A stretch of DNA of 63,908 nt, filler included, from Licmophora abbreviata (GCA_900291995.1; 16 parts of 16 records of this genome joined end to end with filler, not necessarily neighbours in it), one strand, 5' to 3'; positions 777 to 58,275 are shown, numbered from the whole stretch's first letter. Notes: generated by a model from the letters alone, not told the origin. Numbers and translations are program-made.

Positions 777-2966
777 TTGACCCAGACCGCAGAGCGCATC
801 GCCCGCATCATCGCCACTGAGATCAATGCCCGACCCGATCAGGTGAGCGCGACCGTCCAGCTTCTTGATGGAGGGGCGACGGTGCCTTTCGTGGCCCGCT
901 ATCGCAAGGAAGCGACCGGCGGCCTTGACGATACGCAGTTGCGGACCCTCGCGGACAGGCTGGGCTATTTGCGCGAGCTTGAGGCGCGTCGCGCGGTGAT
1001 CCTTGGGTCGATCAAGGAGCAGGGCAAGCTGACCGAGGCGCTGGAGCGCAGCATCGCCGGCGCGGACACCAAGGCCGCCCTTGAAGACATCTATCTGCCG
1101 TTCAAGCCGAAGCGCCGCACCAAGGCGATGATCGCGCGCGAAAACGGGCTTGAGCCGCTGTTGCGCGCCATCATGGAGGATCGCGCGGCCCGGCCCGACG
1201 AGCTGGCGGCGGGGTATCTGAGCGAGGCGGTGGCGGATGCCAAAGCCGCGCTGGAGGGTGCGAGGGATATCCTCGTGGAGGACTTGAGCGAAAACGCCGA
1301 TCTTCTGGGGCGCTTGCGCAGCTTCATGCAGGAGACCGCGCTGATTACCGCACGGGTCCAGCCGGGCAAGGAAGAGGCGGGGGTCAAGTTCTCGGATTAT
1401 TTCGATCACCGTGAAAAATGGGCGAGCATCCCGTCGCATCGGGCGCTGGCGATTCTGCGCGCAGCCAAGGAAGAGATCGTCACCGTCGATATCGCCCCCG
1501 ATCCGGAAACTGACGCCCCCCGCGCCATCGCCATGATCGAGGTGGCGATCGGCATACCAGGCAACGCGCCGGGGGATCAGTGGCTGCGCGAGGTGGCGGG
1601 CTGGACATGGCGGGTCAAGCTCAGTCTGACGATGTATGTCGATCTGATGGGTACGCTGCGCAAACGCGCGCATGAAGAGGCCATCGCCGTCTTCGCCCGC
1701 AACCTGCGCGATCTTCTGCTGGCGGCCCCGGCGGGGCCGCGCCCGACGCTCGGACTTGATCCCGGCATTCGCACCGGNNNNNNNNNNNNNNNNNNNNNNN
1801 NNNNNNNNNNNNNNNNNNNNNTTAATTAATTAANNNNNNNNNNNNNNNNNNNNNNNNNNNNNNNNNNNNNNNNNNNNGTGATCGTGTCCGAGGCGGGGGC
1901 CTCGGTCTATTCCGCATCGGAACTTGCGGCCGAGGAATTCCCCGATCTGGATGTGTCCCTGCGCGGGGCGGTGTCGATTGCACGGCGGCTGCAGGATCCG
2001 CTGGCCGAACTGGTGAAGATCACCCCGCAATCCATCGGCGTGGGACAATATCAGCATGATGTCGATCAGCGCCGGCTGACACAGGCGCTCGATGCGGTGG
2101 TCGAGGATGCGGTGAACGCGGTGGGCGTCGATCTGAACATGGCGTCAGCGCCGCTTCTGGCGCGGGTTGCGGGGGTCGGGCCGTCGCTTGCACAGTCCAT
2201 CGTGGCGCATCGCGATGCGCAGGGGCGGTTCGAGTCGCGCAAGGCGCTGCTCAAGGTGTCGGGGATGGGGCCGAAGGCCTTCGAGCAATGCGCGGGATTC
2301 TTGCGGCTGCGCGATGGCAGCGAGCCGCTGGATGTCACCTCGGTGCATCCGGAAGCCTATGACGTGGCCCGGCGCATCGTGCAGGCCTGTGGCCGCGACA
2401 TACGGGCGATCATGGGAGCACCCGAGGCCTTGCGCGGGTTGAATGCGGAAGATTTCGTGGATGATCGTTTCGGCCTGCCAACGGTGCGCGATATTCTGGG
2501 GGAGCTGGAAAAGCCCGGCCGGGACCCGAGGCCCGATTTCGTAACCGCCCGCTTCGCCGAGGGCATCGACGACATCAAGGATTTGCGCCCCGGCATGTCG
2601 TTGGAGGGAACGGTGACGAATGTGGCGGCGTTCGGGGCTTTCGTGGATATCGGCGTGCATCAGGATGGGCTGGTGCATGTCAGCCAGCTGGCCGACAGGT
2701 TCGTCAAGGACCCGCACGAGGTGGTCAAGGCGGGGGACGTGGTCCGGGTGCAGGTGGTTGAGGTGGATGTGGCCCGCAAGCGCATCGGACTGAGCATGCG
2801 CAAGGCCACGTCCGAGGGGCAAACACCTTCGCAGGAGAAGAAACCCACGGGCCGCAGGCCGCACAAGACGCAACCGGCCAAGACCAGCGTCACGTCCGAG
2901 CCGCGCGAGAGCGCGCAAGGGGCACTTGGCGAGGCCTTGCGCAACGCGATGCGAGGCAAGACCTGA
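777..2966 (+). CDS. tex: Tex family RNA-binding transcription accessory protein (split by linker 1778-1877)
   Basis: N-terminal '[19 protein letters not shown]', YqgF motif 'LGLDPGIRT', '[12 protein letters not shown]', HhH region and S1 domain '[26 protein letters not shown]'. Confidence 0.95.
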
Positions 2967-3199
2967 AGACCGGGCCTTCGGGGGCCGTTTCCGAATGGTG
3001 CGCCGCGCCGTGTTCCGGGGGCGGCGGCACGGCTATCTTGCGCTTGAAAGCTGGGTATCAAGCGAGGTGGTGCCGCGCCTTTGGCCTGTCTGGCCTGCCA
3101 AGTCCCAGATGACAAACGGCCGGATGGCCGGGCGTTTCAAGCGGGCAGAGCGACAGGCCGAACACTGTCTGCTTTTGTCTCGGAATTTTCGGGGGGAGG

Positions 3200-3218
3200 A
3201 GTGGCAGCCCGTAGGGGA
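3200..3218. repeat. att site (displaced copy of the tRNA-Glu 3' end)
   Basis: AGTGGCAGCCCGTAGGGGA, identical to 16474-16492. Confidence 0.93.
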
Positions 3219-3374
3219 GCCATACTGCATTGATAAGTTGCTGCGTTTTTTGAAGGAAATCCCTTCATTTCATATTGAAATACGGTTATTTATCCTTCTC
3301 TTTGTTCCGTGGCGGTCTTGACGTTTCCGCCAACATCCACAAATAAAAGGTGGGTGAATAGAGGTGTGAAAGTC

Positions 3375-4691
3375 ATGGCGGACGGAAGTCAAGGCACAGT
3401 CAGGGGCGGCGGAAAGCCTAAGGGACCGCATCAAAAGAACCGATTGAGCGCGGTCTTTGTGAAGTCCGCGCCTCCCGGTCGGCATTTCGACGGGAATGGG
3501 CTTTTCCTGCTGGTCGAGAAGAACAAGGCGCGGCGTTGGTATCAGCGGTTGACGATCCACGGTAGGCGTAGGGAGGCGGGTCTCGGTGCACCTCCCGTGG
3601 TCACGTTAGCCCACGCCAGAGAACAGGCCATTGAGAACCTTCGCTTGGCCCGTGAAGGCCGTGACCCCATTGAAGAACGCAAGGCAATCAAAGAGGCGCT
3701 TACATCGGCCAGACGCACTCCCACGTTCGCTGAGGCGGTCGAGGGGTGCATGGAAAAGAAAGCGCCGGAGTTCACCAGCGAAAAACACGAAAAGCAGTGG
3801 CGCTCGACATTGGACCGTTATGCCGTCCCAGTTATTGGCAAGCGTACGGTGGATGAAATCGACGCAAATGACATTCTCGCCATTCTCAAACCGATCTGGA
3901 TGGACAAGACCGAAACCGCCAAGCGGCTGCGCCAGCGCATAGAAGCTGTGCTCAGATGGGCCACAGTGGCTGGATATCGCAATGGGGAAAACCCCGCGCG
4001 GTGGAAAGACAATCTGGCCGAACGCCTGCCAAGCCCGAACAAGATTGCGAAAACACGGCACCAACCGGCGCTTTCACTGTCCGAGGCGTCTGTTTGGTTC
4101 GCCAAGTTGAAACAGCGCGAGGGCAACAGTGCGAGGGCGTTGGAGTTTCTTGCTCTGACCGCTGCGCGGTCGGGTGAAGTCAGGGGCATGACTTGGGCTG
4201 AGGTTGATTTGACGAATGGCCTTTGGACTGTGCCAGCATCGCGCATGAAGATGAACCGAGAGCATCGGGTTCCACTGACCGAAGGCGCGGTGGCGCTTCT
4301 GCGGGACCTGCCAAGGCACAAAACGTCTGACTTCGTTTTCTTCGCTCCGCAGGGCGGCAAATTGTCGGATATGAGCGTTTCAGCCGTGATGAAGCGGATG
4401 CACGAGGCTGAAAAGCGGGCAGGGGGCGAGGGGTTCTTGGATAGGACGAGCCAGCGCCCCGCCGTGCCGCATGGTCTGAGGTCCACATTCAGGGATTGGG
4501 TGGCCGAGCATACAAGCTATCCCGGCGAATTGGCAGAAATCGCGTTGGCGCACAAAGTCAGCAATTCGGTCGAGGCCGCCTATCGGCGCGGCGACCAGTT
4601 GGACAAGCGGCGACAGATGATGGCGGCTTGGGCCGGGTTCCTGTCAGGCGAAAGGGGCCAGATTGTGCCAGTGGAGTTTGGTCATGGGTAA
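3375..4691 (+). CDS. P4-type tyrosine integrase with N-terminal arm-binding domain
   Basis: 'DGNGLFLLV' and 'GRRREAGLG..P.VTLA.ARE' arm-binding domain. Catalytic motifs 'LTAARSGEV', 'HRVPL', 'HGLRSTFRDW', 'LAH' and 'AAYRR'. RBS GAGGTG precedes ATG 3375. Confidence 0.95.
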   Translation: MADGSQGTVRGGGKPKGPHQKNRLSAVFVKSAPPGRHFDGNGLFLLVEKNKARRWYQRLTIHGRRREAGLGAPPVVTLAHAREQAIENLRLAREGRDPIEERKAIKEALTSARRTPTFAEAVEGCMEKKAPEFTSEKHEKQWRSTLDRYAVPVIGKRTVDEIDANDILAILKPIWMDKTETAKRLRQRIEAVLRWATVAGYRNGENPARWKDNLAERLPSPNKIAKTRHQPALSLSEASVWFAKLKQREGNSARALEFLALTAARSGEVRGMTWAEVDLTNGLWTVPASRMKMNREHRVPLTEGAVALLRDLPRHKTSDFVFFAPQGGKLSDMSVSAVMKRMHEAEKRAGGEGFLDRTSQRPAVPHGLRSTFRDWVAEHTSYPGELAEIALAHKVSNSVEAAYRRGDQLDKRRQMMAAWAGFLSGERGQIVPVEFGHG

Positions 4692-5412
4692 GAGGCAGAA
4701 AATACCGAAAGAGGAACTGCGCCGTGACTTTGAAATTGCTGTCGCTCATGCTGTCAAGCGTGTGGCATTGTATAAATTTCTGCATATGGGACTGATGCCT
4801 GATGGCGACTCAATCCCTTTGCCGCTCCCTTTGGATGAAAGCGTTGGTTACCTTTCTTCAGTATTTGGCGTTCAAATTAGCCCCAATGAGATGAAGATTG
4901 ATAAAGATAGCAGCGAGGCACTCGTTGCGTTGGCGAGAGGTGGAAATCGAGCAGCATTTGACTTGGCAAAGACAATTTGTGAAATCAGGCTCAACAACCT
5001 ACTCGACTTGGACAAACATTTGTCGCGCTTTGCATCCGCCGTCTTGTCCGGCGATCTGCCGAGGCCAAAAGCCGCGAAATCAGCTTCGCGAGCGAGCGTA
5101 GCAGCTCGCAACTACCTCGTTCTAGAGTTGCTTGACGAATTGCAGGCTAAATTCCCGAGGCTACACAGAACCAGAAACGAAGGGCTAAATGATGAGACGG
5201 CGGGAATTTCTCTTTGGGACGTGGCCCGAGAGGCATTCCGATTGAACGGCATTTCTGAACAATTGAGTTTCGACGACGTTCGAAACTTGGATGTAGGCAA
5301 AATTTATCAGAAATTGCGTGAACGATATGCGATTGAGAAACGTGTACGCGAGCAGCCTATTTGCCCGACCATACGCGCAATGTTGATCCACAAAATTCTG
5401 AGCCGAGCGTGA
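4684..5412 (+). CDS. hypothetical protein (242 aa) overlapping the integrase stop
   Basis: Long ORF in lower-GC DNA; ATG 4684 overlaps the integrase end by 8 nt. No family recognised. Confidence 0.65.
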   Translation: MGKRQKIPKEELRRDFEIAVAHAVKRVALYKFLHMGLMPDGDSIPLPLPLDESVGYLSSVFGVQISPNEMKIDKDSSEALVALARGGNRAAFDLAKTICEIRLNNLLDLDKHLSRFASAVLSGDLPRPKAAKSASRASVAARNYLVLELLDELQAKFPRLHRTRNEGLNDETAGISLWDVAREAFRLNGISEQLSFDDVRNLDVGKIYQKLRERYAIEKRVREQPICPTIRAMLIHKILSRA

Positions 5413-5498
5413 GTGTAAAAACTATTTTTTTGCTACACTCTCAAGCTTGATGCCTTCGTGTTCCTGTCAGTCACCACCAACTGTTGGAGACTGAAAAG

Positions 5499-5678
5499 AT
5501 GCAGGAACAACTGATCCGCCGTCATGATGTTGAGGCCGCCACGAGCCTCAGCCGAAGCGCGATTTACGCGATGATGGATGAGGGGAAATTCCCCCGTCCG
5601 GTCCGCGTCGGCAAGCGCGCTGTCGCTTGGAAGAAATCCGAAATCGAAGAATGGATGGCAAGCCGCGAGGCCGCCTAA
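5499..5678 (+). CDS. alpA: AlpA family regulator/excisionase
   Basis: 'LIRRHDVEAATSLSRSAIYAMMDEGKFPRPVRVGKRAVAWKKSEIEEWM' matches the AlpA consensus. Confidence 0.93.
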   Translation: MQEQLIRRHDVEAATSLSRSAIYAMMDEGKFPRPVRVGKRAVAWKKSEIEEWMASREAA

Positions 5679-5787
5679 AGCAACCCCCACCCGGAGGACC
5701 GGGCGGGGTGTGCAGCGTATCAGCGTGAAATGGAAAGCACCTGATGTGTAGCCAATCTTGCCCGCCTCCGCAACAATGGAGGCTTTC

Positions 5788-6084
5788 ATGCCTAAGTCAA
5801 ATTGGGGCAAGGCGAAGTTCCTTGTCGAGCGTCAGCATGGCGCATGTTTCACTGTCGAAGCGAGAGGTCGAAACCGTTGGGCCTTGGAGTGCCTGATAGC
5901 GGCAGGGCCGAAAGGGTGCACGCCGATTGAAACACCGGGACCGCGATGGAGCGGGTATGTTCACGAGTTGCGGAAACTCGGTGTCCCGATTGAGACGGTC
6001 CGCGAACCGCACGGTGGTGACTTGGCCGGAAGTCATGCTCGGTATGTTCTACCCTGCAAAGTCAGACGGGTCGCCGAGGTGTAG
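5788..6084 (+). CDS. winged-helix domain protein typical of alphaproteobacterial mobile elements
   Basis: RBS GGAGG; motif 'WALECLIAAGPKGCTP...PRWSGYVHELRKLGVPIET..E.HGG...G.HARYVL'. Confidence 0.75.
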   Translation: MPKSNWGKAKFLVERQHGACFTVEARGRNRWALECLIAAGPKGCTPIETPGPRWSGYVHELRKLGVPIETVREPHGGDLAGSHARYVLPCKVRRVAEV

Positions 6085-6086
6085 TC

Positions 6087-6365
6087 ATGACTTGCAAGCG
6101 GGGAACCAGTCACCGAGAGCGCGACCCTGATTATCGCGATGTCGTTTATGTCAGAGGTGGATGGCGCGTTATCGTCTGCAAAGATGGTATCCAGTGGATT
6201 ATCCAGCGTCGCCACGGTCCTGAGAGCCTGCACCGGGCGTATTGGCGGGGGCAGCACTACTGCACCACCCGTGACGCTCTAGTTCGCGTCTGGTGCGGCC
6301 TCACAGGTAATCGTGGAGACTGGTTGTCCAACAACCTGCCTGAACGCATCGGAGTGAACCGATGA
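6087..6365 (+). CDS. hypothetical protein (92 aa)
   Basis: Tightly packed between the wHTH gene and prim-pol (ATGA overlap at 6362-6365); 'WRVIVCKDGIQWIIQRR'. Confidence 0.65.
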   Translation: MTCKRGTSHRERDPDYRDVVYVRGGWRVIVCKDGIQWIIQRRHGPESLHRAYWRGQHYCTTRDALVRVWCGLTGNRGDWLSNNLPERIGVNR

Positions 6366-7447
6366 GTGGGGCCGTGGAACGCAAAGCATGCGCGGAGCCG
6401 CCGTCCGGAGATATGGCGCGTCTGGACCGGGCGGGCTTTAGTCTGTTGCCCTTGGGTGGTGGTGAGGATGGAAAGTCGCCGCTGGTCAAATTCCAAGGCA
6501 AGTCACGTCTGACTTTAAGCCAAGTCCTTGGTCCGATGCACCGCAAGCAATCGCAGTGCTACGGCATCCGCCTGCAAGAAATGGCAGTCATTGACTGCGA
6601 CGTAGATTACCCTGACTTGGTGGAGCAGTTGGAGGCGCGTTTCGGCGCGTCTCCGGTTCACATCAAAACTCCGCGTGGGCGGCATCTCTACTATGGTCAC
6701 GATGGTTCAAAGCTGCCGAACCTGCGGGCTGAGGGCCTAGCAGTCGATATCAAGTCCGGGGTGAACAGCTACGTCATGGGGCCGGGTTCTGTTCGGCCCG
6801 ATGGTGGCCAGTACGTCGCTGTAAAAGGCGATTTGGCGGTAGATGCGTTGCCGATGATAAAAGTAACTTCTGTGGCTTGGGTGGCTGAAAGCCAAGCAAC
6901 GCGGCCCGGCCTCATACCTAAAGGGGAGCGGAACAAGGCGCTCTGCGACGAGGCGAGGCAAATGGTCGAATATGTCGATGACGTGGATGAATTGGCCGCT
7001 AACCTTCGAGCGATACGCGACGACCAGTGTCAGAACCCGCAAACGGTTCAGAATGATGAGATTGCGAAAATCGCGGACTGGGCGTGGGCGCTTCGACTTA
7101 AGGGCAAGCTATATCGCGGACGTGACAGCGAGTTTCCGGTCCCTCGCCCAGTGCTAGACGCATTACGGGATTACCCTACCGAGCTAGAAGCGACCGCGCT
7201 CTACTTGAGGCTTCTTGACTTGCATGGGCATAATCCGGCCCGAGAGTTTCCATTAGACCACAAGGCTATGATGGAAGCTGGTCATACGAAGTTGTCAGAG
7301 CGTAAGTTCAGGGCGGCAAGAGATACGTTGCGGAAAGTGGGTGTTCTCGAAGTCGCTCAACACTATGTCCCGAAAAAGCGCAAACAAACCTACCGGCTGA
7401 AGCGGTTTCGGGGGGAGTTACCCGATAATGTGACCGAATTGCGGTGA
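6362..7447 (+). CDS. bifunctional primase-polymerase (Prim-Pol) with PriCT-like region and C-terminal helical/wHTH-like region
   Basis: 'KSPLV', 'YGI...AVIDCD', 'KTPRGRHLYY', 'VDIKSG..SYVMGPGSVRPDGGQY', then PriCT-like 'IPKGERNKAL'. No helicase Walker A present. Confidence 0.88.
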   Translation: MSGAVERKACAEPPSGDMARLDRAGFSLLPLGGGEDGKSPLVKFQGKSRLTLSQVLGPMHRKQSQCYGIRLQEMAVIDCDVDYPDLVEQLEARFGASPVHIKTPRGRHLYYGHDGSKLPNLRAEGLAVDIKSGVNSYVMGPGSVRPDGGQYVAVKGDLAVDALPMIKVTSVAWVAESQATRPGLIPKGERNKALCDEARQMVEYVDDVDELAANLRAIRDDQCQNPQTVQNDEIAKIADWAWALRLKGKLYRGRDSEFPVPRPVLDALRDYPTELEATALYLRLLDLHGHNPAREFPLDHKAMMEAGHTKLSERKFRAARDTLRKVGVLEVAQHYVPKKRKQTYRLKRFRGELPDNVTELR

Positions 7448-7462
7448 CAAAGTTGGTCGCAA

Positions 7463-7600
7463 GGGGCTGGGGGGAGAGGGGGGGGGGAGGGTTTATTAAT
7501 TACTTATGTTCGTCAGAATTGACCAACATAAGGGAAACGGCGGCAGGTGTCAGACCTCCCCCCTCCATGTCCTGCTGACATATCGCGTGGAGCGTGTCAG
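7463..7600. other. candidate replication origin of the island
   Basis: G-tract, then AT-rich TTTATTAATTA, a 13-bp inverted repeat at 7503-7532, a complementary C-tract at 7555-7566 and recurring GTCAG/CTGAC, all directly after prim-pol. Confidence 0.4.
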
Positions 7601-7641
7601 AGTGAAATGCGCATTTGATTGATACTTTTGGAGGACTGCAC

Positions 7642-7962
7642 GTGAAACGTTTTGTTGGCACGGCGCTCGCGATTATCTCCGGCTTTGCGCTTGCTGCTTG
7701 GTTTGCCCTGTTTTTCTTTTGGTATGGCTTGCCACATGAAGGCATCAAGTACCTGTTTGGTTGGAGCGTTTTCGCCAGCATGTTTACCGCAGGAGTTTTG
7801 CTACTTATCCCCGTGATTGGCTGGCTTGCGATACTGATCTTTTCGGTGTTTGCCTTAACGAATATCTGGGGCTTTGGGCTTCTCCCGGCCATTGGCATAA
7901 TGTTCCTGTTTCCAATGGTTGCTACGGCCCTTTTTGGCATGGCTTTGCAGATGCAGGAATAG
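7642..7962 (+). CDS. small integral membrane protein (3-4 TM, 106 aa)
   Basis: RBS GGAGGA before GTG 7642; sequence almost entirely hydrophobic. Confidence 0.7.
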   Translation: MKRFVGTALAIISGFALAAWFALFFFWYGLPHEGIKYLFGWSVFASMFTAGVLLLIPVIGWLAILIFSVFALTNIWGFGLLPAIGIMFLFPMVATALFGMALQMQE

Positions 7963-7966
7963 TTGC

Positions 7967-8461
7967 TCAGGCAATCACGCTCTGCCACCGCTTCCGCCAA
8001 ACACTTCCGGGCAAAGTATCCGCTCGCCAAACCAGCGCCGCCTCATAGAGCCGCCGAGTATCCTGCGCCGCTGCATCGGGCAGGGCTTCCAACAATTCCT
8101 GCCGTTCCTTGCGGTCCATCGCCTCCCACGCCTCGCGACCTTCGTTGAACCGGTCTTGCCGCGCATAGTTGGCATGCAATTCACCCGTGAGAAATCGCTT
8201 GATATTGTGGGGGTGGTGCGGGACTTCGACCCGACCACCGTGCTTGATGCACCGTGTTGCGCCTCTCACGGCGGCACAGCGACATTTGGTGCCACGCTTG
8301 GTCGTGGCGTGGCATCGGGGGGCTTTTTGGATGGCCTTCAAGCCCATCCGGCGGCCTGCGTCCGTCAAGTTTTCCGGAGTAGGGCGACCGCGTGGACGCG
8401 GCGCGTTGCGCGCTGCCTTAGCTACTTTGTCCAAGAACCGCAGTTGTCGCTTGGTAGGCAT
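7967..8461 (-). CDS. HGGxSTG-like Cys/His motif protein
   Basis: 'RCHATTKRGTKCRCAAVRGATRCIKHGG' matches the C-x-A-x-T-x-x-G-x-x-C...C-x-x-HGG pattern, but the STG part is absent. Start uncertain (8461 or 8533). Confidence 0.7.
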   Translation of the reverse strand: MPTKRQLRFLDKVAKAARNAPRPRGRPTPENLTDAGRRMGLKAIQKAPRCHATTKRGTKCRCAAVRGATRCIKHGGRVEVPHHPHNIKRFLTGELHANYARQDRFNEGREAWEAMDRKERQELLEALPDAAAQDTRRLYEAALVWRADTLPGSVWRKRWQSVIA

Positions 8462-8916
8462 TTCGATCCGCTCTACGGTGGCCCTGCGCGATTTCGCTAG
8501 GGGTAGAATATGGGATTGAAGGCTTTGTCCCAAGGATAAACACTGAAGCCGTAAGCTTCCGGCGTCACTGTTCTGCCGCGCAAAGAGGATGGTGCATTCG
8601 GCATATCAGTAGCATTACACCGCTAGTGTTCGCATCTGAAGTCAGTTTTCCAGCCTGCATCTATTGTGCCTCCGCCGTTGTGCAAAGGTGCGAGCGTCGG
8701 CTTTGCGCAGACAGCGAAGTTTACAAGTTTGCGAACCGTGTTCGTCCTTCATGACACACTCGGCCCAGAGCTGCCGTTCATCGGTTTCGCCGACGCCGCA
8801 ATGCGGCGTCCTTAAAGTGGATCGCTCGGCATTTGCACCCAGCATGAAACCAAGCTTTCCAATACAATCGATTTCGGCTACTCAATCCACCAACCCAATC
8901 GATGGTCTATTCTTAG

Positions 8917-10104
8917 ATGCCAATAGTCTATGAAGAAGAGCTCAAGCAATTGCTTGCGGATGGCGGAATTACCGCGATCTCGATCGACACGAGCATCTTC
9001 GATCAGAAACAGCTCAACCTGAACTCGGCCGCAATGCAGGCTGCGGCGCGGCTGAAACCGCTTTCTTTCGACTACATGCTGTCGAGCACTGTCGCGAAAG
9101 AGGTCGAAAACCACCTCGAAAATGCAGCACAAGTTGCCTTGCAGAAAGCAAAGAAAGAAGTCGGGAAGGCCCTCTTTGCTTTTGATACCGAGAAACCTAC
9201 CAGAGATGCAATTCTTGACCAGATAACTGGGGGGAAATCGGCGAGTGACATCGCTAAAGAGCGTTGGGACAAATACTTGGCCGAAAGCGGCTGCAAGGTC
9301 ATTGATGATCATTCCCTGGTCGACACATCGACGTTGTTTGACGCCTACTTTTCTGGCGAACCACCCTTCGGCAGCGGAAGGAAAAAAGATGAGTTTCCAG
9401 ACGCTCTCGCATTGAACGCTCTCGAACGCGCCGCAGTGGAACGCGGCACTGGAATACTTGTCGTGTCGAAGGACGGTGACTGGCGAGCATACTGCGAAAA
9501 GTCTGAAAACCTCTACATTGTGCCAGAAATTGAGAAAGCGTTGGCGATGATACGAAACGCGCCGCCCGTCCTCAAGATGGCGGTTCACACCTGGCTGGTA
9601 GAAAATGGCGACGGTTCAGAGGACATATTTCCCAACATTGCGCTGCGCGTAGAAAATCTTGAGTTTTCAGCTTCCGCCTATCCGACGTTTGGTGAGGCAG
9701 AAGTCTTCACGTGGGCAGGCGAACTTCAGAGCATTGATTGGCCACGAGAGGATGAAATTGATGTTATCGATTTCGAGGATCGTGAGGACGAACATGCGGC
9801 TCGACTTGTCCTGAGCATGCCTTTGGAATTGGTCGTTAGAGTGATGGTGGAACTCGATTTCTCTGTTTGGGACGGCATCGACAAAGAGTCCGTTAGCATG
9901 GGCGGGCGGTGCATCGAAGTTGATGAGGGTATGACGGTTCGCACGACAATCACTGTCGACGTATACGGAATTGGGACGGATGATCAGGAGATCGTCTACC
10001 TGGACAGTGAAATTGATGATCCGAACCACGAGATTGAATTGGGTGAAGTCGATGTCTTTGAACCGGAAGACGCTTGGCACGATGACGACCAACCCGAAGA
10101 ATGA
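8917..10104 (+). CDS. PIN-domain protein (DUF4935/PIN_12-like) with acidic C-terminal domain
   Basis: 'ISIDTSIF', 'TVAKEV', 'YFSGEPPFGSGRKKDEFPDALAL' and 'LVVSKDGDW' carry the PIN acidic residues. Confidence 0.85.
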   Translation: MPIVYEEELKQLLADGGITAISIDTSIFDQKQLNLNSAAMQAAARLKPLSFDYMLSSTVAKEVENHLENAAQVALQKAKKEVGKALFAFDTEKPTRDAILDQITGGKSASDIAKERWDKYLAESGCKVIDDHSLVDTSTLFDAYFSGEPPFGSGRKKDEFPDALALNALERAAVERGTGILVVSKDGDWRAYCEKSENLYIVPEIEKALAMIRNAPPVLKMAVHTWLVENGDGSEDIFPNIALRVENLEFSASAYPTFGEAEVFTWAGELQSIDWPREDEIDVIDFEDREDEHAARLVLSMPLELVVRVMVELDFSVWDGIDKESVSMGGRCIEVDEGMTVRTTITVDVYGIGTDDQEIVYLDSEIDDPNHEIELGEVDVFEPEDAWHDDDQPEE

Positions 10105-10278
10105 CCGATCCGAAGGGCCTTGTGTGTTTCACAAAACGGCTGGGGACCGAACACATCGTGAGGCTCACATGGTTCGGTGCAAAACTGGTGCAGCCACAAT
10201 CCAACACGCGAGACTCCCATGAGCACTTGGCTCCTGGAGTATCTGACTATTGGTCTGAGATCGTTGTTGCTCCAACAT

Positions 10279-10371
10279 GCAGCGAAAGCGGCTTCCCGCC
10301 CTCACTGTCGGACCCTCGCGAGCGGCCTATTCCCGACCTTCAAGACTTAGACGGGATGCTGCACTCGCAGC
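10279..10371. repeat. intergenic motif pair shared with 15418-15449
   Basis: GCAGCGAA-N3-GGCTTCCCGCC (10279-10300) and hairpin GCTGCACTCGCAGC (10358-10371). Confidence 0.65.
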
Positions 10372-10481
10372 CCGCATAGCGGACGTTGATCCAAATAGCT
10401 CACTTTAGGGGCAAACGACCTTGTTGTCGAACCCGGCGCTAGCCATACTCCGCTTAAACCAAACTTTTCAGGACTTGTTAG

Positions 10482-11075
10482 TTGAAAGCTGTGACCAACC
10501 CGAGGTGGAACCCCGACAATCCAATCGAGATTGCGCCAGAAGTCTATGAAAAACAGGTTGTTTCTTGGCTGCGATCTGCGGGGCAAGAGCTTCAGGGTTT
10601 CACCGTCAGTCACCTAGAAAAGATACATGGCCATGGAGGAGAATACAGTATTGACGGCTGGGCGGAGTTTGAGATTTTTGGGGGTACAAAAATCTGTGTC
10701 CTTGTAGAGTGTAAAAAGCACAGGCGGCCAGTAGAGCGAGATGTTATTCTGGGTGTGCACGCAAAAGCCCAAGCAATTGGTGCACAAAAGTCCATTGTAT
10801 TCTCGACTTCGGGTTTTCAAAAAGGAGCTATCGAGTTTGCTACGTCTTCCGGTGTCGCACTTGTGATATTCGTGGATGGTAAACTCACCTACGTCACTCG
10901 GAGCAGAGAGCCGCTGTGCGAAGCAGGCTATCCACCCGACCTGCCAGATTTTGCAGGGCAAATAATATGGTCTGAAGGCAATAGAACCTCAATTTCGACT
11001 GTTACCGATGATCGTATCAACCCATTGGCAGAGTGGTTCAGGTCTGAAAGAGAAGGCCCATTTCGTCAGTTTTAG
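10482..11075 (+). CDS. Mrr-like (Mrr_cat) restriction endonuclease
   Basis: 'YEKQV', 'IDG', 'LVECK', 'FSTSGFQKGAIEFA..GVALV' follow the Mrr_cat pattern. Start is TTG 10482 or GTG 10491. Confidence 0.88.
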   Translation: MKAVTNPRWNPDNPIEIAPEVYEKQVVSWLRSAGQELQGFTVSHLEKIHGHGGEYSIDGWAEFEIFGGTKICVLVECKKHRRPVERDVILGVHAKAQAIGAQKSIVFSTSGFQKGAIEFATSSGVALVIFVDGKLTYVTRSREPLCEAGYPPDLPDFAGQIIWSEGNRTSISTVTDDRINPLAEWFRSEREGPFRQF

Positions 11076-11115
11076 GCTGCTTAGAAATAGGCACCAGCAA
11101 GAGAGTATTCATCTT

Positions 11116-14100
11116 TTGACCTCAGGTTATGTTTCTTTGTCTCGGCGATTTTTGGAAGTCACCTCCAGCGACTTTGAGAACGAGTCCGAAAATATCTGGG
11201 CTTCTCTCGCGACGCGAGAGACAGGAAAGAAGTGGGAAGAAATTCTCACCAACGATATTTCTATTCTCCTAGGCACCGCTGGATCGGGCAAAACAACTGA
11301 AATGCGTCAGCATGTGAAGCGCCTCATTGAGGATGGGCAAGACGCATTCCTGATGCGCTTGGAAGCGCTACAAGATGGAACTTTGTCGGACTCATTCGAT
11401 TTTGAATTGGATGACCAACGCGACCGATTTGAAAAATGGAAGCGATCAAGAAAAGGTGGATATCTGTTTTTTGACGCGCTCGACGAGGCGCGACTACCGT
11501 CTTCACGCAATGAGAGTGCGCTAGATAGGGCCCTCGACATTGTCTCACGTGAAGTTGGGCGACGACGGGCCCCCCTACATGTTCTAGTCACCAGTCGCCC
11601 AAGCGAGTGGCTTGGGGAGGGCGATGTAAGGCGCCTAGCTCGTTTCATAAAACAGACACGAGATGCCAAACAGGACTTGGGAAGAGGCGACCCTACACAC
11701 AGGATTTATCGCCTAGCGCCGCTGGCGAGTGGTGACATTGAGAAACTTGCTAATTCTCGCGAGGTGAAGCCATCGGACTTCATCNNNNNNNNNNNNNNNN
11801 NNNNNNNNNNNNNNNNNNNNNNNNNNNNTTAATTAATTAANNNNNNNNNNNNNNNNNNNNNNNNNNNNNNNNNNNNNNNNNNNNCTGTTTCAGCCATCTG
11901 TTGGGGGGCGCATCCGGTTCGCCCATCGGGAGATACGGGACTTCCTTGCAGCTGAATATTTCGACGAAAGCTTGCGAGCAAGAGCACATTCGGAAGAAAC
12001 AATCGCGCCACTTTTTGCCGAGGGTCTAGGGCGTCAGTCGATCCCACAGTCAACAGAGCACGTCATGGGCTGGTTGGCGGCCTTGAATAGCTCAGCAAAG
12101 GTGCTTGTGACGAAGGTGAGACCAGCGCTGCTTATCGAGACTGGAGACCCAAAGTCACTTTCTGTAGGCGACAAGGAGCTCGCGCTACGCAGTCAAGCTC
12201 GTCTGTATGATGACCTTCGATACAGAGGCGATTGGTTCTATCACGATGACGTAAAGCGCTTCACGCACCCTGACTTGTGGCCCGTAGTCGACGAGCTTCT
12301 GGACAAATCCAGTTCTCCTGAATTGACTGACTTTTTAATCAAGGTCGCTCGGTTCGGAAAGATGGGTCCGCTTGCTCCCAAACTGGCTGGCTATGTCGGA
12401 AATTCAGGAATTGGCTATCGTAGCAAAGCGGAAGCGTGTGCTGCCCTCGATGAAATAGGAGATGAATCATTTAGCGCTGATGTGCTGTCGGAAGCCCTGA
12501 CAACCGCACCGCCGGACGTCGAGGATACGGATTCTGCTCCGAACTGGAATATGTTCCTGTTGAAGGCATTGAAGTGCAGCTTTGGCGAAGCCAACTTGCT
12601 CGATGGGATTGCCATTCTTTCGAGAGTTCACAGAGAACGCTCCAACTATTCATCCGCAACATCTCAGTATTTGATCGAAATACTTGAGGAACTGCCCCGG
12701 CCACAAAAGAAGTTGTGGCTGTCAATATTGCTGCGCTTTGCGTTTACCGGTCGGTCTGAGAACCGCTACCGGATGCCTGAAGCTTCGGCTCGCTATAGAA
12801 GGTTTTTGCCTGCCATTATCTTTTTGGCTTCTGAATTGTTAGGTGATGATGGGCTGCAGCCAGACGACAAAGACTTGCTTGATGCCATTGAGATGGCGAT
12901 GGGCAAGCATCACAGGATCGACGTTTTTGGCCGCAAAGCGCCAACGAAGCAACTCGCGAGTGGTCTTCGGGCGCGACCGGATGTCAAACACGCACTTGTT
13001 CAAAGACGAATGAAACTGTTTTCTGATCGAGTTCAGCGTCACCGCGTTCCGTTCGGAGTGATCCACCCTTTAGAATTCGATGACAAAGATGAGAACGGAG
13101 ACGTTTTTGATCAGTCCGATGTGTCTCACTTTTGCGAACTCGCATCAAAGGCCTCCGATCAAAATGAGCAGGCATTCCTGCTTGACCTGTCAGGAACCAT
13201 TTTGGCCGAACTTCGGGGGGAGGAGCACAGGAATGCGTTAGGTGAGTTCAAAAGTTTTTTGAGGAAATATGGGGACGATAGTCAGCGTCGACAATTTGGT
13301 GTCCGGAGCTGGTATCTTCGAACAATATCTCGCGTGCAACATCAATATCGCTATGATGCTCAGAGGTGGTTCCGAGAAAGGAAGGAAGCCGTTAAGTTAT
13401 GGCGAACCGCCCGAAAGAATCGGAAATTCATTTCGAGAAATCGCAAAAGCATTGCAGCCGGTGAGTTTGACAACAGCAATGCGGTTTGGCTTTTCGACAA
13501 GGCTCCAGACGATCTTGGATCGGGGACGATCCGCGCAGTCCAAGAGGAATACGGACCTAGGATTGCGCAGTTGTTCAGCGATGGCCTGCGGCAATACTGG
13601 AAGGCCCATGATACGAGCTACGCTGAAAGGCCAACATACCTCGGCCACATCGGCCTAGCTGGCATCAACTTGGATTACTCACTTGGAGAGATGCCCAGTG
13701 ATACAGACCTTGGACGCAAGTCTTTCCGATATGCATTTCACGAGTTGGGCAGCTTTCCCGAATGGGTTGATGAGCTAGCACAAATTTTTCCAAGCCAATT
13801 TTGCTCTGAGATCAAAGCTGCGCTTCTGGTGGATTTCATGACTGAGCGAGGTGACAACGACCACCAAGTGTCTGATTGCGTGAGTAAGATCGCCTACTCT
13901 GGTGTACTTACCAGAAACCTCGTCGCGCCGATGCTCCTGCGAATGATGATGCGTGTTTTACCTAAGAACCGTAGTGACAGAATGCTCTGCCTAGACATCG
14001 TGGCGCGCGCGCCCTCTGTCGAGCAGGACCGCCTTTCTAGGTTTCTTGTNNNNNNNNNNNNNNNNNNNNNNNNNNNNNNNNNNNNNNNNNNNNTTAATTA

Positions 14101-15369
14101 ATTAANNNNNNNNNNNNNNNNNNNNNNNNNNNNNNNNNNNNNNNNNNNNGCCTAGACATCGTGGCGCGCGCGCCCTCTGTCGAGCAGGACCGCCTTTCTA
14201 GGTTTCTTGTTTCAGGCTATCGAGCGGCGTTGACCCGGTTTGATTTCAGAGAGGCGTGGGTTTGGCTTGATGGTTTGATGAATGCGAACTCAAACGCCGC
14301 TAGACGCGTGTTGATCTCGACCGTTGGTGATCTCCAAAGCGCAGGGCAAAGGGCGCTGTTTTTTGAATACTTGGGGCGCGAAGGAAACAAGCCTTCTCTG
14401 GAGGAAGGTTCGGACCCAGTGCGATGTGAGTATAAGCAAGATGCAATTCTTCTAGAGTGGTTGGTTCAGGCATCGTACTTGGCATGGCCTCCCGAGAAAG
14501 ATGTAAAGCACGAAAGTGTCTATTCTCCGGGGAAAGAGGATCACGCCGAGAGCAACAGAAGAATCTACATCAATATGTTGGCCGCGTTTCAAACACAAAA
14601 TGTTGTCAAGGCATTTGAAAGACTGGCCAAGTCAAAGAAGCTTGCAGGCTACCGGGATACTTTTTTGTACCAGATCGAGCTGATGAAGCGAGGGGCCGGA
14701 AGCAGGCCCGAGTTTTCACCTGATGAAGCAATTCGGTTTCTCAACGATCAGTCCAAGGCGCCCGCGACTGTGGACGAGTTCAGGAAGCTCTGCCAAACGC
14801 ATCTACAGACGCTTCTCGAACGGCTGCATACTTCCGACGATGATGAAAGCGCATTCTTCCGGCGCGGCGAAGCAAAAGAAGCCGATTTAAGAAATTGGCT
14901 GGCCGCCCGTCTGCGAGACGTGGGGGAGCGCTACTACACGGTCATCAGGGAGCAAGAAGTCGCCGGTGATAAGCGGCCTGATCTCAGGCTGCATTCGAGA
15001 ATAGACGCTTTGGGGAAGGTGTCAGTTGAGATCAAGCTTGCCGATATGGCGCATTGGAAAGGAGATCAGTTGGTCAACACTCCTGATGAGCAGCTTTCAA
15101 ATCAGTATCTGTTCGAAGCTTCATCTCACACAGGCATTTACGTCCTCGTTAATGCGTCCGGCCCGAGGAAGGAGGAGAAAGACAAGAAGACCAACAAGGT
15201 CAAAAGAAGCGCCTTTGGAAAGAAAATCGCTGGTAAGACGGTGAACTTTGTGGAGCTCGTTGCACTCGTGGAGGAAAAGTGCGCTGCAGTAAATGATGGT
15301 CTCGCTGACGGTAAGATGGTGGTCGCAGTTACGCGCGACATCTCCGAGAAACCGTCCGATACCATTTAA
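11116..15369 (+). CDS. large STAND/NACHT NTPase with C-terminal PD-(D/E)XK nuclease (one gene split by linkers 11785-11884 and 14050-14149)
   Basis: Walker A 'LLGTAGSGKTTE', Walker B 'YLFFDALDE', sensor 'LVTSRP' and 'YRLAPL'. After the first gap comes the WHD motif 'RFAHREIRDFLAA'. The second gap has a 61-bp contig overlap. C-terminus 'EADLRNWL..REQEV..KRPDLRL..VSVEIK..QLSNQYL..GIYV'. Confidence 0.82.
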
Positions 15370-15417
15370 GCGGATTCTGTGAATCAAACGGCCGCTTTGC
15401 AGGTCTAACTTTTGAAG

Positions 15418-15449
15418 GCTGCACTCGCAGCGAACTTGGGCTTCCCGCC
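15418..15449. repeat. intergenic motif shared with 10279-10371
   Basis: GCTGCACTCGCAGC (exact 14-bp match) fused to GCAGCGAA-N4-GGCTTCCCGCC. Confidence 0.65.
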
Positions 15450-15900
15450 GACCCTTCCAAATGTTGCAAGCGCGACTATTGGTAGAACCATGTCGGCGTC
15501 GGGCTGACTGCTGTTATTTGACAATTCCGCCCAGGATACTTGTCTCCTGATTTCTCGCCTGCGTTCAAAGCGTATCTTGTGCCAATAGCATGGCCGTTTT
15601 CGGGCGGGTCGGCTCAAGAAATTTCAAAATTTTTCTCGACCAAGGGGATAACAGCTAACAGACCACGCGCGGGGGTCTACCGGGGGGTGGGGTGCGTGTA
15701 GGGGGCAGACCAAGCGCCGCGCGACACACCCTAGTTAACTCAGTGGGGCTTTGAATTGCCCCCGCCAGACGTATCCGACGAGGGCAGAGAGCCGATCTAT
15801 GCTGGTAGGGTGTCAGGCGGCGGCAGCATCACGAAAGTCTACGGGCAGTTTTGTGGATTTTCATAGGCAGTGAGGGCCGCCCATGAGCGGCCCCTGTGCG

Positions 15901-16146
15901 TTATGCTCTCTGACTGGCGTTTAGAAACCGGTGATGAAACTCGAACGCAGCTTCCGTGCTGACTTCGACCGCGTGACTTGCGCCGTCTATGTCGCCGGGA
16001 TTGGAAGCCTCTTTGATGAACGCCCATGCGATACTCGCGCCCAGCGCATGCATCACATCTTCGAGTGTCGGGTTTTCCTTACCGTCGTCGCGGCAGAGTT
16101 CTTCTGTCAGCATCACCAGTTTTTCCGGGGTGCACATATCAGCCAT
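15901..16146 (-). CDS. small acidic hypothetical protein (81 aa)
   Basis: RBS AAAGGA 6 nt before ATG 16146; protein-like composition. No family recognised. Confidence 0.55.
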   Translation of the reverse strand: MADMCTPEKLVMLTEELCRDDGKENPTLEDVMHALGASIAWAFIKEASNPGDIDGASHAVEVSTEAAFEFHHRFLNASQRA

Positions 16147-16473
16147 GGTTAGTCCTTTCTTTGTTGCCATGACTGAACCAAAGCAAGAGCGCGGGCCGCT
16201 GTCGTGAGTGCCTTTGGTGCCCAGTCGTGCGCGCAGTCAGGCAAAGTCACACCAAAAGCGACAAGGCTAAGACGGCGTCTGCCGTCTGGAGGACTAAAAC
16301 GAAGGGATTTGTGTTAGTGCTCGTTTTGGTGCTCACGCCAAAAGCACCAAGGGAAAACGTGATTTGGCTATAACAATCGTCCGGACTGTGTACCCTCACC
16401 ACATCAAATTTGAGGGGTAAGCAGGTGGGTGCGACAGCGTAAGGCGCTCTAAGTAATTGACTTCAAAGGGGTA

Positions 16474-16492
16474 AGTGGCAGCCCGTAGGGGA
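16474..16492. repeat. att site overlapping the intact tRNA-Glu 3' end
   Basis: Identical to 3200-3218; covers the last 17 nt of the tRNA plus 2 nt beyond CCA. Confidence 0.93.
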
Positions 16493-16550
16493 ATCGAACC
16501 CCTCTTTCCAGGTTGAAAACCTGGCGTCCTAACCGATAGACGAACGGGCC
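16476..16550 (-). tRNA. tRNA-Glu(TTC)
   Basis: GGCCCGTTCGTCTATCGGTTAGGACGCCAGGTTTTCAACCTGGAAAGAGGGGTTCGATTCCCCTACGGGCTGCCA folds as a cloverleaf with anticodon stem CCAGG/CCTGG, TTC anticodon, GTTCGA T-loop and CCA end. Confidence 0.97.
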
Positions 16551-16750
16551 ACTGTTGCGCGTGAATGGCTATCTAGAGAAGTGACCTGACCTGTTCAAGC
16601 AGTTTTTTCACCAATAACCACAATTTTCGAAATGCCGGGCAGGTGAGGTGTCTGCGCCGTTTTCGGGGGATGCGATCCGGCCTGTTCGTGACGTGTCAGG
16701 GGCCTTGGAGTCGCCTGTGGAGCGCCGGGAAAAGGGCGCGCGTGTCGGTG

Positions 16751-18575
16751 TCAGGCGGGAGCTGCATCTTCCAGCTGGAGCTGCGCGCTGCGGCGCCCGC
16801 CCCATTCGTTGATCCCGATCCGACNNNNNNNNNNNNNNNNNNNNNNNNNNNNNNNNNNNNNNNNNNNNTTAATTAATTAANNNNNNNNNNNNNNNNNNNN
16901 NNNNNNNNNNNNNNNNNNNNNNNNCGCCGCCATGCGACATCAGCGCCTGCCCGAGCGGGCTGTCGAAGGCGCCGAAGGCGATGGCGTCGAGCTGACCGGA
17001 CAATCCGTCGCCGAAGCGCAGTTTCAGATGCGCATCGCCCACCCGCTTGGCAAAGCCGATCTGCATGTCGGGAAAGACATAGCGCGGCCCCGGCGCGCCT
17101 GCGCCGAAGGGGCCGGCGGCTTCGATCCGCTCGACCAGCTCGACCGTGGCGGCGCCGGGCATCAGGACGCCATCAAGCCGCAGATCGGCAGGGCCTGCGG
17201 CGCCTGATCCTTGCCGGTCGAGCAACTCGGAGAGGCGCTCCATCGCCGCCTCGAGCCGGTCGCGCGCCACGGTGAGGCCCGCGGCCATGCGGTGTCCGCC
17301 GCCCTTGATGAGCAGGCCCTCGGCGGCAAGACGCTGGATCGACGCGCCCAGATCGACGCCCGATATGGACCGCCCCGAACCTTTTCCCTCATTGCCGTCC
17401 ATGCCGATCACGATGGCGGGGCGGTTCGTCAGTTCCTTGAGGCGCGAGGCCACGATCCCCACGACACCGGGATGCCAGCCTTCGCCCGCGGCCCAGACCA
17501 ATGGCGCGTCCAGCCCGCGTGCCTCGGCCTGCGCGAGGGCGGCGGCGCGCACGCCGGCCTCGATGTCGCGACGCTCGGAATTCAGCTCATCCAGCCGTTC
17601 AGCAAGGGATCGCGCCTCGGAGATGTCGCGGGTCGCCAGCAGCCGCGCGCCCAGATCGGCCTTGCCGATCCGTCCCCCGGCATTGACACGCGGCCCCATC
17701 ACGAAGCCGAGGTGATAGGCCGAGGGTGCCGTATCGAGCCGTGCCACATCGCTGAGCGCCACAAGGCCCGGACGGTCGCGGCGGGCCATGATGCGCAGAC
17801 CCTGCCGGACAAAGGCGCGGTTCACGCCCTTGAGGGGCGCCACATCGGCCACGGTCGCCAGCGCCACCAGATCGAGCATGGCCATAAGGTCGGGGCCTGT
17901 CTCGCCAAGTGCGCGCAGCTGCCGCCCGGCTTCGACCAGCATCAGGAACACGACGGCGGCAGCACAGAGATGCGCCAGATCGCCGCTCTCGTCCTGCCGG
18001 TTGGGATTGACCACCGCAAGTGCGGGCGGCAGCGTCTCGCCGCCGAGATGGTGATCGAGGATCACGACATCCGCGCCACGCGCGGCTGCGATGGCGTCAT
18101 GGCTCAGCGTGCCGCAATCGACGCAGATGATCAGGTCATGGGCCGCCGCAAGCTCGGCCATGGCGGGTTCGTTGGGGCCATAGCCTTCGTCGATCCGGTC
18201 GGGGATATAGAGCGTCGCGGCAAGGCCCATCTGGCGCAGCCAGTCGATCAGCAGCGCAGCGGACGCGCCGCCATCCACGTCGTAATCCGCGAAGATCGCG
18301 ATACGCTCGCGGGCGCGGACTGCCGCGATGAAGCGGGCAGCGGCGGGTTCCATGTCCCGCAGGCTGCGCGGATCGGGCAAAAGATCGCGCAGCGACGGCT
18401 CGAGATACGGCTCGGCCTCGGTTTCGGGCACACCCAGCCGCGCGAGCGTCTGGCACAGGGGACGGGGCAGGCCGGTGGACTGGGCCATCGCTTCGGCAAG
18501 GCGCTCGACCTCGACGCCGGGGCCGATCCAGCGCCGCCCGGTCAGCGAATGCGCGATGCCGAGATAGGCGTCCAC
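16751..18575 (-). CDS. recJ: ssDNA exonuclease RecJ (linker 16825-16924; probable 1-nt error near 16800)
   Basis: 'ADYDVDG', 'CVDCG', 'LDHH' and 'GGGHRMAAG'. The C-terminus 'RRSAQLQLEDAAPA*' is found beyond the gap. Confidence 0.95.
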
Positions 18576-51712: not shown

Positions 51713-52228
51713 GGCGTCGGTATCGCAGCGGTCGCCGGGCAGGATCGATACGGCGTCTACCATGTCGGTGCTCAGAGCGTCGGTCATGCCGTCGGGAATG
51801 TCATCCGCGGCACCACAGGTAACCGACACGCCCTCCCATGACACGGTGACGCTGCGCCCGGCCATACGGGCGGCGGCGTCGAGATAGGGCAGCAGCAGCA
51901 TCGGGCTGGCGGTGCGACCCAGATGCAGCGCCTCGCCTGCCGCCAGCCGGGAGGCATGATCGCAGAGGGCCGCGCCGGAAATCAGCGGGCAGAGCGTGCC
52001 ACCGCGCGCGGTCCAGCGGCCTTCGTCTTCGTCGTGGGGGCAGAGCGTCTCGTAGGTCGTGCCGTCGTTGCGGGTCAGCAGATCGGCCAGAACCTGCGGG
52101 CCGGGCAGCCCTTGCGCCACCAGCCAGCGGGCGGCCTTGCCGGCCTCTTCGGCCAGACCCCAGCTCAGGCCCGCGCCGCGCGCGGCCTTGCGCGACAGCG
52201 CCTCGATCTCGTTCAGCGACCAGGTCAT
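51713..52228 (-). CDS. DUF3726-like protein (3' end in gap)
   Basis: 'SLNEIEALSRKAARGAGLSWGLAEEAG.A.RWL' and 'LCPLISGAALCD'. Confidence 0.75.
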
Positions 52229-53919: not shown

Positions 53920-53985
53920 GGGGCTCCTCCGGTCTTGTCATATCAGATGATAGGGCGGCCCGGCCAGCGGACCGCCCCTTTTTTA

Positions 53986-55542: not shown

Positions 55543-55585
55543 TCTGTTCTCCCTGCGAATATCCTTGGGGTGGGCACTTGGGCCC

Positions 55586-56581: not shown

Positions 56582-56586
56582 GGGGC

Positions 56587-58165: not shown

Positions 58166-58249
58166 GGTGCAGCCCCCGTTCTGAGTCGGTCTTCGAAGAT
58201 GATGCGGGGCAGAAGGGCAGAGAGAAGCGTTTCAGGCAAACGCAAACTT

Positions 58250-58275
58250 CTGAAGAAAAATTCAGCAACTCTGAA
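58250..58275. promoter_or_regulatory. probable LysR-type operator upstream of the ALDH operon
   Basis: Dyad TTCAG-CAACT-CTGAA (58261-58275) contains T-N11-A; a further CTGAA half-site sits at 58250. Confidence 0.6.

Follow-up and report, generated by a model that had tools for sequence, protein, structure and literature searches.

Avs3 and Avs4 are STAND NTPases that combine a repeat sensor with a nuclease effector of the PD-(D/E)xK type and defend by abortive infection once a conserved phage protein has been sensed. The described systems closest to the gene studied here are Hypnos (HyoA) and Erebus (EruA), which two papers group with bNACHT64 as Avs10 (PMC12803255, PMC13581612). According to the same papers, Avs10 is one of three STAND families triggered by the phage major capsid protein, it contacts the penton/hexon-forming interface of the capsid A-domain, and mutation or deletion of the effector abolished cell death in all tested families (PMC13581612, PMC12803255).

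Here we analyze a NACHT gene with a predicted C-terminal nuclease, and the Mrr nuclease gene just upstream of it, in a DNA stretch of 63,908 nucleotides deposited under Licmophora abbreviata (GCA_900291995.1), hereafter called the window. A previous interpretation, made from the DNA alone and hereafter abbreviated as the sequence-only reading, had proposed the two genes as a new anti-phage system. The results of our comparisons indicate that the NACHT protein is a member of the already described Hypnos/Avs10 antiphage family, a divergent one and no new system, as it gives a full-length match to the NCBIfam family HyoA (Hypnos)/Avs10 that removes the claimed novelty. It is probably an antiphage receptor of NLR-like type that works as a single protein and belongs with Hypnos (HyoA), Erebus and bNACHT64 in Avs10, encoded by one intact gene that is carried as island cargo and has Mrr as a facultative neighbour.

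A NACHT gene split by contig spacers

The window (1-63908) is a pseudomolecule in which separate contigs are joined by 15 identical spacers of 100 bp, each of the form N44 + TTAATTAATTAA + N44, and open reading frames (ORFs) that end at a spacer are artificially cut. The locus of interest is spread over three contigs (1878-11784, 11885-14049 and 14150-16824), in which the NACHT gene and the spacers that interrupt it lie as follows.

11116-11784, + strand: NACHT gene fragment 1, with the N-terminus, Walker A (11272-11295), Walker B DALDE (11467-11487) and TSRP; HyoA positions 1-225, E 1.3e-37; residues 6-224 of the intact homologue P0009
11785-11884, no strand: artificial contig spacer, in place of 378 bp (126 codons) of the NACHT gene; bridged by contigs of four sequencing runs
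11885-14049, + strand: NACHT gene fragment 2, with the putative end of the winged helix (FAHREIRDFLAA at 11918-11953) and the helical sensor; HyoA positions 348-1067, E 2.5e-63; P0009 residues 351-1071
14050-14149, no strand: artificial contig spacer at which nothing is lost; identical 61 bp on both sides
14150-15369, + strand: NACHT gene fragment 3, with the last helical repeats and the C-terminal nuclease; HyoA positions 1081-1393, E 1.6e-43; AlphaFold2 predicted local distance difference test (pLDDT) 79

All three fragments are open reading throughout and strictly collinear with three intact homologues of 1,456-1,457 residues, to which they are 85-91% identical; on P0009 (1,457 residues) the third fragment covers positions 1053-1457. 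Among longer proteins, the middle fragment retrieved 53 relatives, mostly of 1,451-1,473 residues and at most 91% identical. Measured against the closest DNA relative (L002 in our numbering of related loci), the first spacer replaces exactly 378 bp, while the second is flanked by an exact 61-bp duplicate (13989-14049 = 14150-14210), leaving 223 + 721 + 405 - 20 or about 1,330 visible codons. The TTG start at 11116, which lies 40 bp past the Mrr stop codon, agrees with the N-termini of the homologues, and homology to relatives lacking Mrr begins at 11128. With this start Walker A begins at residue 53, and there is consequently no room for an N-terminal effector. The gene model of the sequence-only reading has thus proved accurate in all these respects: it had joined the three fragments into one gene of 1330 visible codons plus a missing piece (126 codons, as counted here), noted the 61-bp overlap at the second gap and the lack of an N-terminal effector, and named the motifs GTAGSGKT, FFDALDE, TSRP, FAHREIRDFLAA and RPD...EIK...Q...Y, all of which we also find.

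The three pieces and the absence of 126 codons could also be taken to mean that the gene is truly broken in its host, the fragments being remnants of a pseudogene or of an interrupted copy, and decayed copies are known among the related loci: L018 is cut after 296 residues with its Mrr gene intact, L017 is without the nuclease domain, and in L019 two ORFs of 1,136 and 306 residues share the gene. We regard this explanation as very improbable. The breaks fall on artificial spacers, of which the window has 15, and the neighbouring Tex gene is split by a spacer in the same way (777-1829 and 1878-2966), its collinearity across the break supporting the order of the contigs. Moreover, all sampled words of the window from 12000 to 14000 are present in six sequencing runs, and contigs (Logan) of four of them were aligned with L002 to bridge the gaps. 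The stretch L002:120-5350 is covered without a break by one contig each from X2 (19.5 kb) and X5 (9.1 kb), the first gap is also crossed in X22 and X1, and the sole indels in the bridging contigs are single bases at L002 253 and 867/875, all outside the NACHT ORF. Because contigs carrying this exact DNA cross both breaks without an indel in the ORF, we read the breaks as assembly artefacts; some of the bridging runs may be the source of the window itself, and their contigs are evidence of such an artefact rather than independent biology. The three fragments are therefore one gene of about 1,456 codons, broken by contig concatenation only.

Two side observations concern the assembly. The labels of the six runs (X1-X5 and X22) name one mixed culture and five organisms with different codes, and it seems that several cultures have the bacterium bearing the island as a companion. 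Another pair of contigs in the window (51713-57300 and 57401-59892) has an overlap of 27 bp.

Family, nuclease domain and predicted action

The NTPase core comprises Walker A (GTAGSGKT, 11272-11295) and Walker B (FFDALDE, 11467-11487) followed by TSRP, and the motif FAHREIRDFLAA (11918-11953) is the putative end of a winged-helix region, the remainder of which would lie within the 126 missing codons. In the Kibby preprint, the Walker B signature of NACHT proteins is given as D[GAS]hDE; GTAGSGKT together with DALDE, which is one form of it, conforms to the signature of the NACHT clade. The Pfam model NACHT (PF05729) remains under its gathering score (18.4 vs 26.7 bits), NPHP3_N is just above threshold (28.0 vs 24.8 bits), and nSTAND3 and nSTAND5 are sub-threshold for the NACHT fragments. 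The NCBIfam profile NF058534 ('NACHT domain-containing antiphage protein HyoA', 1,430 positions) is matched collinearly by the fragments at positions 1-225, 348-1067 and 1081-1393, and by the intact homologues at positions 1-1403, 1-1426 and 1-1430 of 1430, with E values of 1e-161 to 4e-183. EruA (NF058535) gives a weaker match than HyoA for the intact homologues, and likewise the sensor fragment (P0003) matches HyoA at positions 348-1067 with E 2.5e-63 and EruA at positions 278-764 with E 3.8e-17.

The order of domains that the sequence-only reading had singled out as reversed appears from sequence comparison to be the usual one in this large family. When the last 405 residues were compared by phmmer with 1.84 billion cluster representatives, 1,077 of these matched at E <= 1e-3 (343 at E <= 1e-10). 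The best 150 of these 1,077 include 85 proteins of at least 1,300 residues, 15 of 700-1,299 residues and 50 shorter ones, which may be fragments or other architectures. In the part of the 85 long proteins that was inspected row by row, the match lies in the last ~400 residues, and a strict GxxxxGK[ST] motif occurs within the first 400 residues of 39 of the 85, at a median position of 54. C-terminal effectors on bacterial NACHT proteins are already in print, being described in the Kibby preprint.

The domain at the end of the protein is defined in the window as follows.

14857-15366, + strand: PD-(D/E)xK restriction-endonuclease-like domain, with RPD at 14974-14982 and EIK at 15028-15036; catalytic residues invariant in 27/27 sequences; model pLDDT 85; best VIA-align Z 9.3

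We aligned the last 170 residues of the window protein with those of 19 relatives and seven HyoA-class proteins (27 sequences in total). Ten positions are invariant in all 27, namely E8, E32, R40, D42, E58, K60, W67, Q79, Y84 and G93, and these contain the complete PD-(D/E)xK residue set (E32, D42, E58 and K60, plus E8, R40, Q79 and Y84). An AlphaFold2 model of the 170-residue domain (pLDDT 85.3, predicted template modelling score 0.81) has an alpha-beta-beta-beta-alpha-beta core, and in the model of the last 405 residues helical repeats precede the nuclease domain. Comparison of the smaller model with 48,161 chains by VIA-align gave seven rows with Z of at least 8.1 (9.3, 8.5, 8.4, 8.3, 8.2, 8.1 and 8.1), values of 8-9 being middling according to the tool's own note. 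The top rows are CdiA-CT (4g6u, Z 9.3, root-mean-square deviation 3.1 over 116 residues), VC1899 (8.5), PaqCI (8.4), Can2 (8.3) and the LlaBIII nuclease domain (8.1); all rows with Z of at least 8 are restriction-endonuclease-fold entries, VC1899 being a protein of this fold as well. Lower rows contain McrC, BstEII, Card1, NucS, HamA and many type II enzymes, and half of the 50 rows obtained with the larger model (25) have titles that name nucleases. Since these structural matches combine with an invariant motif, the C-terminal domain is predicted to be a PD-(D/E)xK nuclease-like domain, in keeping with the long helical middle and terminal nuclease that the sequence-only reading had described.

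The predicted layout of the protein consists of an N-terminal NACHT NTPase, a helical sensor of ~800 residues and the C-terminal PD-(D/E)xK nuclease. How such a protein may work can be proposed from its family, by analogy with Avs10. The resting monomer would be autoinhibited until its helical sensor recognises some conserved protein of the phage; the HK97-fold major capsid protein (the Avs10 case) is the first guess. The NACHT module would then oligomerise and gather the C-terminal nuclease domains, leading to DNA degradation that would halt phage replication at the expense of the cell. A role in defence of the abortive-infection type on a mobile island, as suggested before, is by this analogy still the best reading.

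Several observations weigh against this reading of the gene. At the level of the gene itself, 126 codons lie outside the sequence that was read, and a stop codon could be hidden within them, which is unlikely. At the level of the fold, and besides the middling Z values given above, Foldseek found no match in the PDB at E <= 0.001 with either the 405- or the 170-residue model (best E 2.3e-2 and 1.6e-2, respectively); its best match is McrC (E 1.6e-2), and restriction-type nucleases dominate the lists. At the level of the family, the equivalog cut-off of HyoA (NF058534), set at 1,200 bits, is not reached: intact homologues score 540-611 bits, the genome of the closest relative 590.8 bits and the fragments of the window 129 + 214 + 149 bits. 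The order to which the closest relative belongs was sampled with 401 genomes, of which 23 gave a HyoA match at E <= 1e-20 and three passed the cut-off (1,259-1,665 bits). Eight HyoA-class loci whose scores reach or approach the cut-off share 21-34% identity in local alignments with the fragments of the window. These sub-cut-off scores and this degree of identity indicate that the gene is, by its sequence, a representative of a divergent sister subfamily rather than a HyoA equivalog, and with a local identity of just 21-34% its trigger may differ from the capsid protein. PADLOC-DB 2.0 (2023) returned only weak P-loop matches for the NACHT fragments and their homologues (best E 1.5e-4); in the fold and defence-database checks that had been proposed earlier, AlphaFold2, here combined with VIA-align, pointed to a nuclease-like fold, Foldseek stayed above E 0.001 and PADLOC gave nothing substantial. 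As to context, no phage record carries the NACHT gene, and strong specific PADLOC matches occur in four of 22 related loci (82 nearest ORFs), the rest being generic domains; on these two grounds, the association with defence by context is modest. Finally, the 40-bp spacing without a terminator-like site and the roughly parallel divergence favour a link between Mrr and NACHT, which is considered in the next section.

The context also bears on whether the protein could be a STAND NTPase with a non-defence role, in regulation or as a selfish addiction module, that merely resembles antiphage NLRs. Most related loci do have ordinary neighbours, and defence and non-defence STAND clades are interspersed according to one study (PMC13581612). 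Nevertheless, the homology extends over the full length of two families that are curated as antiphage and the nuclease effector is conserved. The gene is carried by an integrative island, plasmids and a locus resembling an integrative and conjugative element, with a patchy distribution (23/401 genomes of one order), and four loci adjoin ThsA (E 1.4e-152, L016), MkoC (E 5e-66, L007), a type II methyltransferase (E 4e-83, L004) and an HNH gene (E 3e-19, L011). A role outside defence accordingly appears highly improbable to us, and the single-protein receptor of the Hypnos/Avs10 group is retained as the preferred reading. Of note, the NACHT homologue of an Ensifer genome is immediately preceded by a full-length ThsA gene (SIR2-STALD, Thoeris; L016:4007-5458), and the two form a small defence cluster.

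The upstream Mrr gene

The Mrr gene and a short motif found on either side of the gene pair have the following positions.

10482-11075, + strand: stand-alone Mrr_cat nuclease gene, 197 residues, TTG start; Pfam Mrr_cat E 1.7e-10
10358-10371, + strand: 14-nt motif GCTGCACTCGCAGC, ~110 bp before Mrr; conserved upstream of Mrr in L002, L008 and L018
15418-15431, + strand: second exact copy of the 14-nt motif GCTGCACTCGCAGC, 49 bp past the NACHT stop codon; variants equally placed in L001, L004 and L007

In the 197-residue protein Pfam reports Mrr_cat (PF04471) alone, at residues 37-128 (41.5 bits vs a cut-off of 21), and does not find the DNA-binding domain Mrr_N; beyond the recognised domain there is a conserved tail of ~70 residues. 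The catalytic residues D58, E75 and K77 (D...ExK) are kept in six of seven aligned homologues, and a weak match to PADLOC mREase_IV (E 0.0012) is present. An Mrr_cat gene ending 40 bp upstream on the same strand had been correctly recognised in the sequence-only reading; the pairing of the two nucleases that it envisaged fares differently, as shown by the distribution of the Mrr gene.

Several features are in line with an obligate two-gene system, in which Mrr would be a second effector recruited or licensed by the receptor. The two genes share the strand with no terminator-like site in the 40 bp between them, and they stay together in the window and in L002, L008, L011 and L018, with divergence running roughly in parallel over five genomes (94, 91, 74 and 74% for Mrr, and 88, 82 and 77% for the NACHT sensor). 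The DNA homology of Mrr-bearing loci extends from ~160 bp upstream of Mrr to ~80 bp past the NACHT stop codon, with the 14-nt motif near both ends of this block. Yet Mrr was found directly upstream in only four of 23 related loci sampled from one-genome-per-species contigs (L002, L008, L011 and L018, the last with its NACHT truncated at 296 residues); of the 19 loci without it, L004 and L017 have less than 300 nt upstream and cannot be judged. Most close relatives carry an intact, full-length NACHT ORF without Mrr, including L001 and L013 (86-87% sensor identity) as well as the Phaeobacter inhibens plasmid pP78_a (85-92% DNA identity, 91% sensor protein identity), and in Mrr-less loci homology begins at the NACHT start codon. 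The neighbours in the other loci are unrelated genes, for a transposase, a resolvase, ABC transporters, a tRNA synthetase, a type IV secretion system coupling protein and others. Mrr is also absent from all eight HyoA-class loci, none of which has an NCBIfam-named partner gene ('HyoB'-like) among its neighbours. Furthermore, the NACHT protein has its own conserved nuclease and is without an N-terminal adaptor domain able to pair with Mrr.

On a sensor-region tree of 20 rows (L017, L018, L019 and L023 being left out as truncated, split or too distant), the Mrr label requires three changes, 94 of 500 shuffles do no worse, and the label hence does not cluster. Of the 401 genomes from the closest relative's order, three carry an Mrr homologue; in the two genomes distinct from the known pair (identity 49-53%) its surroundings are free of NACHT genes over 7 kb, meaning that Mrr is found alone too. 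A complex prediction with Mrr and the C-terminal 216 residues returned no answer (score 0.00), which speaks neither for nor against binding. We therefore consider an obligate two-gene system quite unlikely, and the notion of a conserved paired nuclease is not borne out by the counts (4/23 related loci, 0/8 HyoA-class loci, absence from pP78_a). From its genomic distribution, Mrr appears to be a facultative neighbour, forming a two-gene cassette in a few Rhodobacterales and no obligate system, and it most likely acts alone, as a small restriction-like nuclease without a required partner.

A narrower form of partnership may be envisaged for one subclade of Rhodobacterales, in which the NACHT nuclease and the short Mrr_cat protein would form a co-evolving cassette bounded by the shared 14-nt motif, the two nucleases cooperating. 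Mrr could then provide a first-line restriction-like activity, or the receptor, once activated, could turn it on as a second effector; no NLR system with such layers or with two effectors was found in our literature search. We judge such cooperation unlikely, and facultative association remains our preferred interpretation of the Mrr gene. The copies and variants of GCTGCACTCGCAGC in relatives lie at L002:155, L008:274, L018:3535, L001:10424, L004:4676 and L007:10424. The motif is near-palindromic, and a perfect palindrome in L004; a regulatory site, a hairpin and a recombination scar, perhaps at the ends of the cassette, are candidate roles for it.

Island context and comparison with known systems

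The two genes are cargo of an island of about 13.3 kb (3200-16492), inserted at tRNA-Glu between Tex and RecJ and having a guanine plus cytosine content of 0.46-0.58 vs 0.60-0.70 in the flanks. Besides Mrr and the NACHT gene, it contains a P4-type tyrosine integrase, a Prim-Pol gene and a PIN_12 protein, as listed here with its two ends.

3200-3218, no strand: left 19-bp direct repeat, putative attachment (att) site; exact repeat at 16474-16492
3309-4691, + strand: tyrosine integrase; Pfam Arm-DNA-bind_3, Phage_int_M and Phage_integrase; PHROG 1 E 2e-50
6362-7447, + strand: Prim-Pol domain protein, candidate replication gene; Pfam Prim-Pol E 3.9e-13
8917-10104, + strand: PIN_12 domain protein of 395 residues, island cargo; Pfam PIN_12 E 4e-20, N-terminal
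16474-16550, - strand: tRNA-Glu (16476-16550) and right 19-bp repeat (16474-16492), the right end of the island; the repeat overlaps the 3' end of the tRNA

The PIN_12 protein, encoded just before the Mrr and NACHT genes, has no match in PADLOC, NCBIfam or PHROG, its C-terminal half is without a domain assignment, and it may be a further cargo or defence candidate. The other island ORFs gave nothing in PADLOC-DB 2.0, and PHROGs named the integrase alone. No capsid or terminase genes were seen on the island, a result by which calling it a satellite is plausible and no more than that.

The cassette also crosses taxonomic boundaries, since its NACHT DNA in Rhodobacterales is 80-90% identical to that of two Gammaproteobacteria, namely a Glaciecola metagenome-assembled genome and a Pokkaliibacter genome (L003 and L007). 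Identity to the copy on the Phaeobacter plasmid is mosaic, with values of 85%, 92% and 88% in fragments 1-3. Such values point to a recent exchange of the gene between the classes and to alleles that have recombined.

With the present analysis, the capsid-sensing, NLR-like nucleases of the Hypnos/Avs10 group gain a divergent subfamily from marine Alphaproteobacteria. Its gene travels as a 4.4-kb single-gene or a 5.1-kb Mrr cassette among Alpha- and Gammaproteobacteria, on plasmids and on the tRNA-Glu island. No new defence class is opened by these data, the optional Mrr companion being the sole non-standard feature; the subfamily does offer a natural test case for comparing sensor divergence with trigger specificity, and an adjacent stand-alone nuclease with a single-protein receptor.

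In comparison with Avs3 and Avs4, the window protein likewise appears to join a STAND NTPase to a repeat sensor and to a nuclease of PD-(D/E)xK type (cf. PMC13581612), but their effector is N-terminal whereas the window protein has Walker A at residue 53 and its predicted nuclease at the C-terminus, and it is without a notable PADLOC match. The Mrr protein shares Mrr_cat and its D...ExK residues with E. coli Mrr and type IV restriction enzymes, from which it differs in having only 197 residues, no N-terminal DNA-binding domain according to Pfam and a conserved tail of ~70 residues. The closest resemblance is to Hypnos (HyoA). The window subfamily does stand apart from it, reaching about half the equivalog cut-off (540-611 vs 1,200 bits) at 21-34% identity, and a subset of its loci has Mrr directly upstream, a situation found in none of the eight HyoA-class loci. 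Nonetheless, both have a length of about 1,430-1,460 residues and the same predicted order of NACHT, helical sensor and PD-(D/E)xK nuclease, their profile alignment is collinear, the catalytic residues of the nuclease are identical, and genes of this kind are stand-alone and horizontally mobile.

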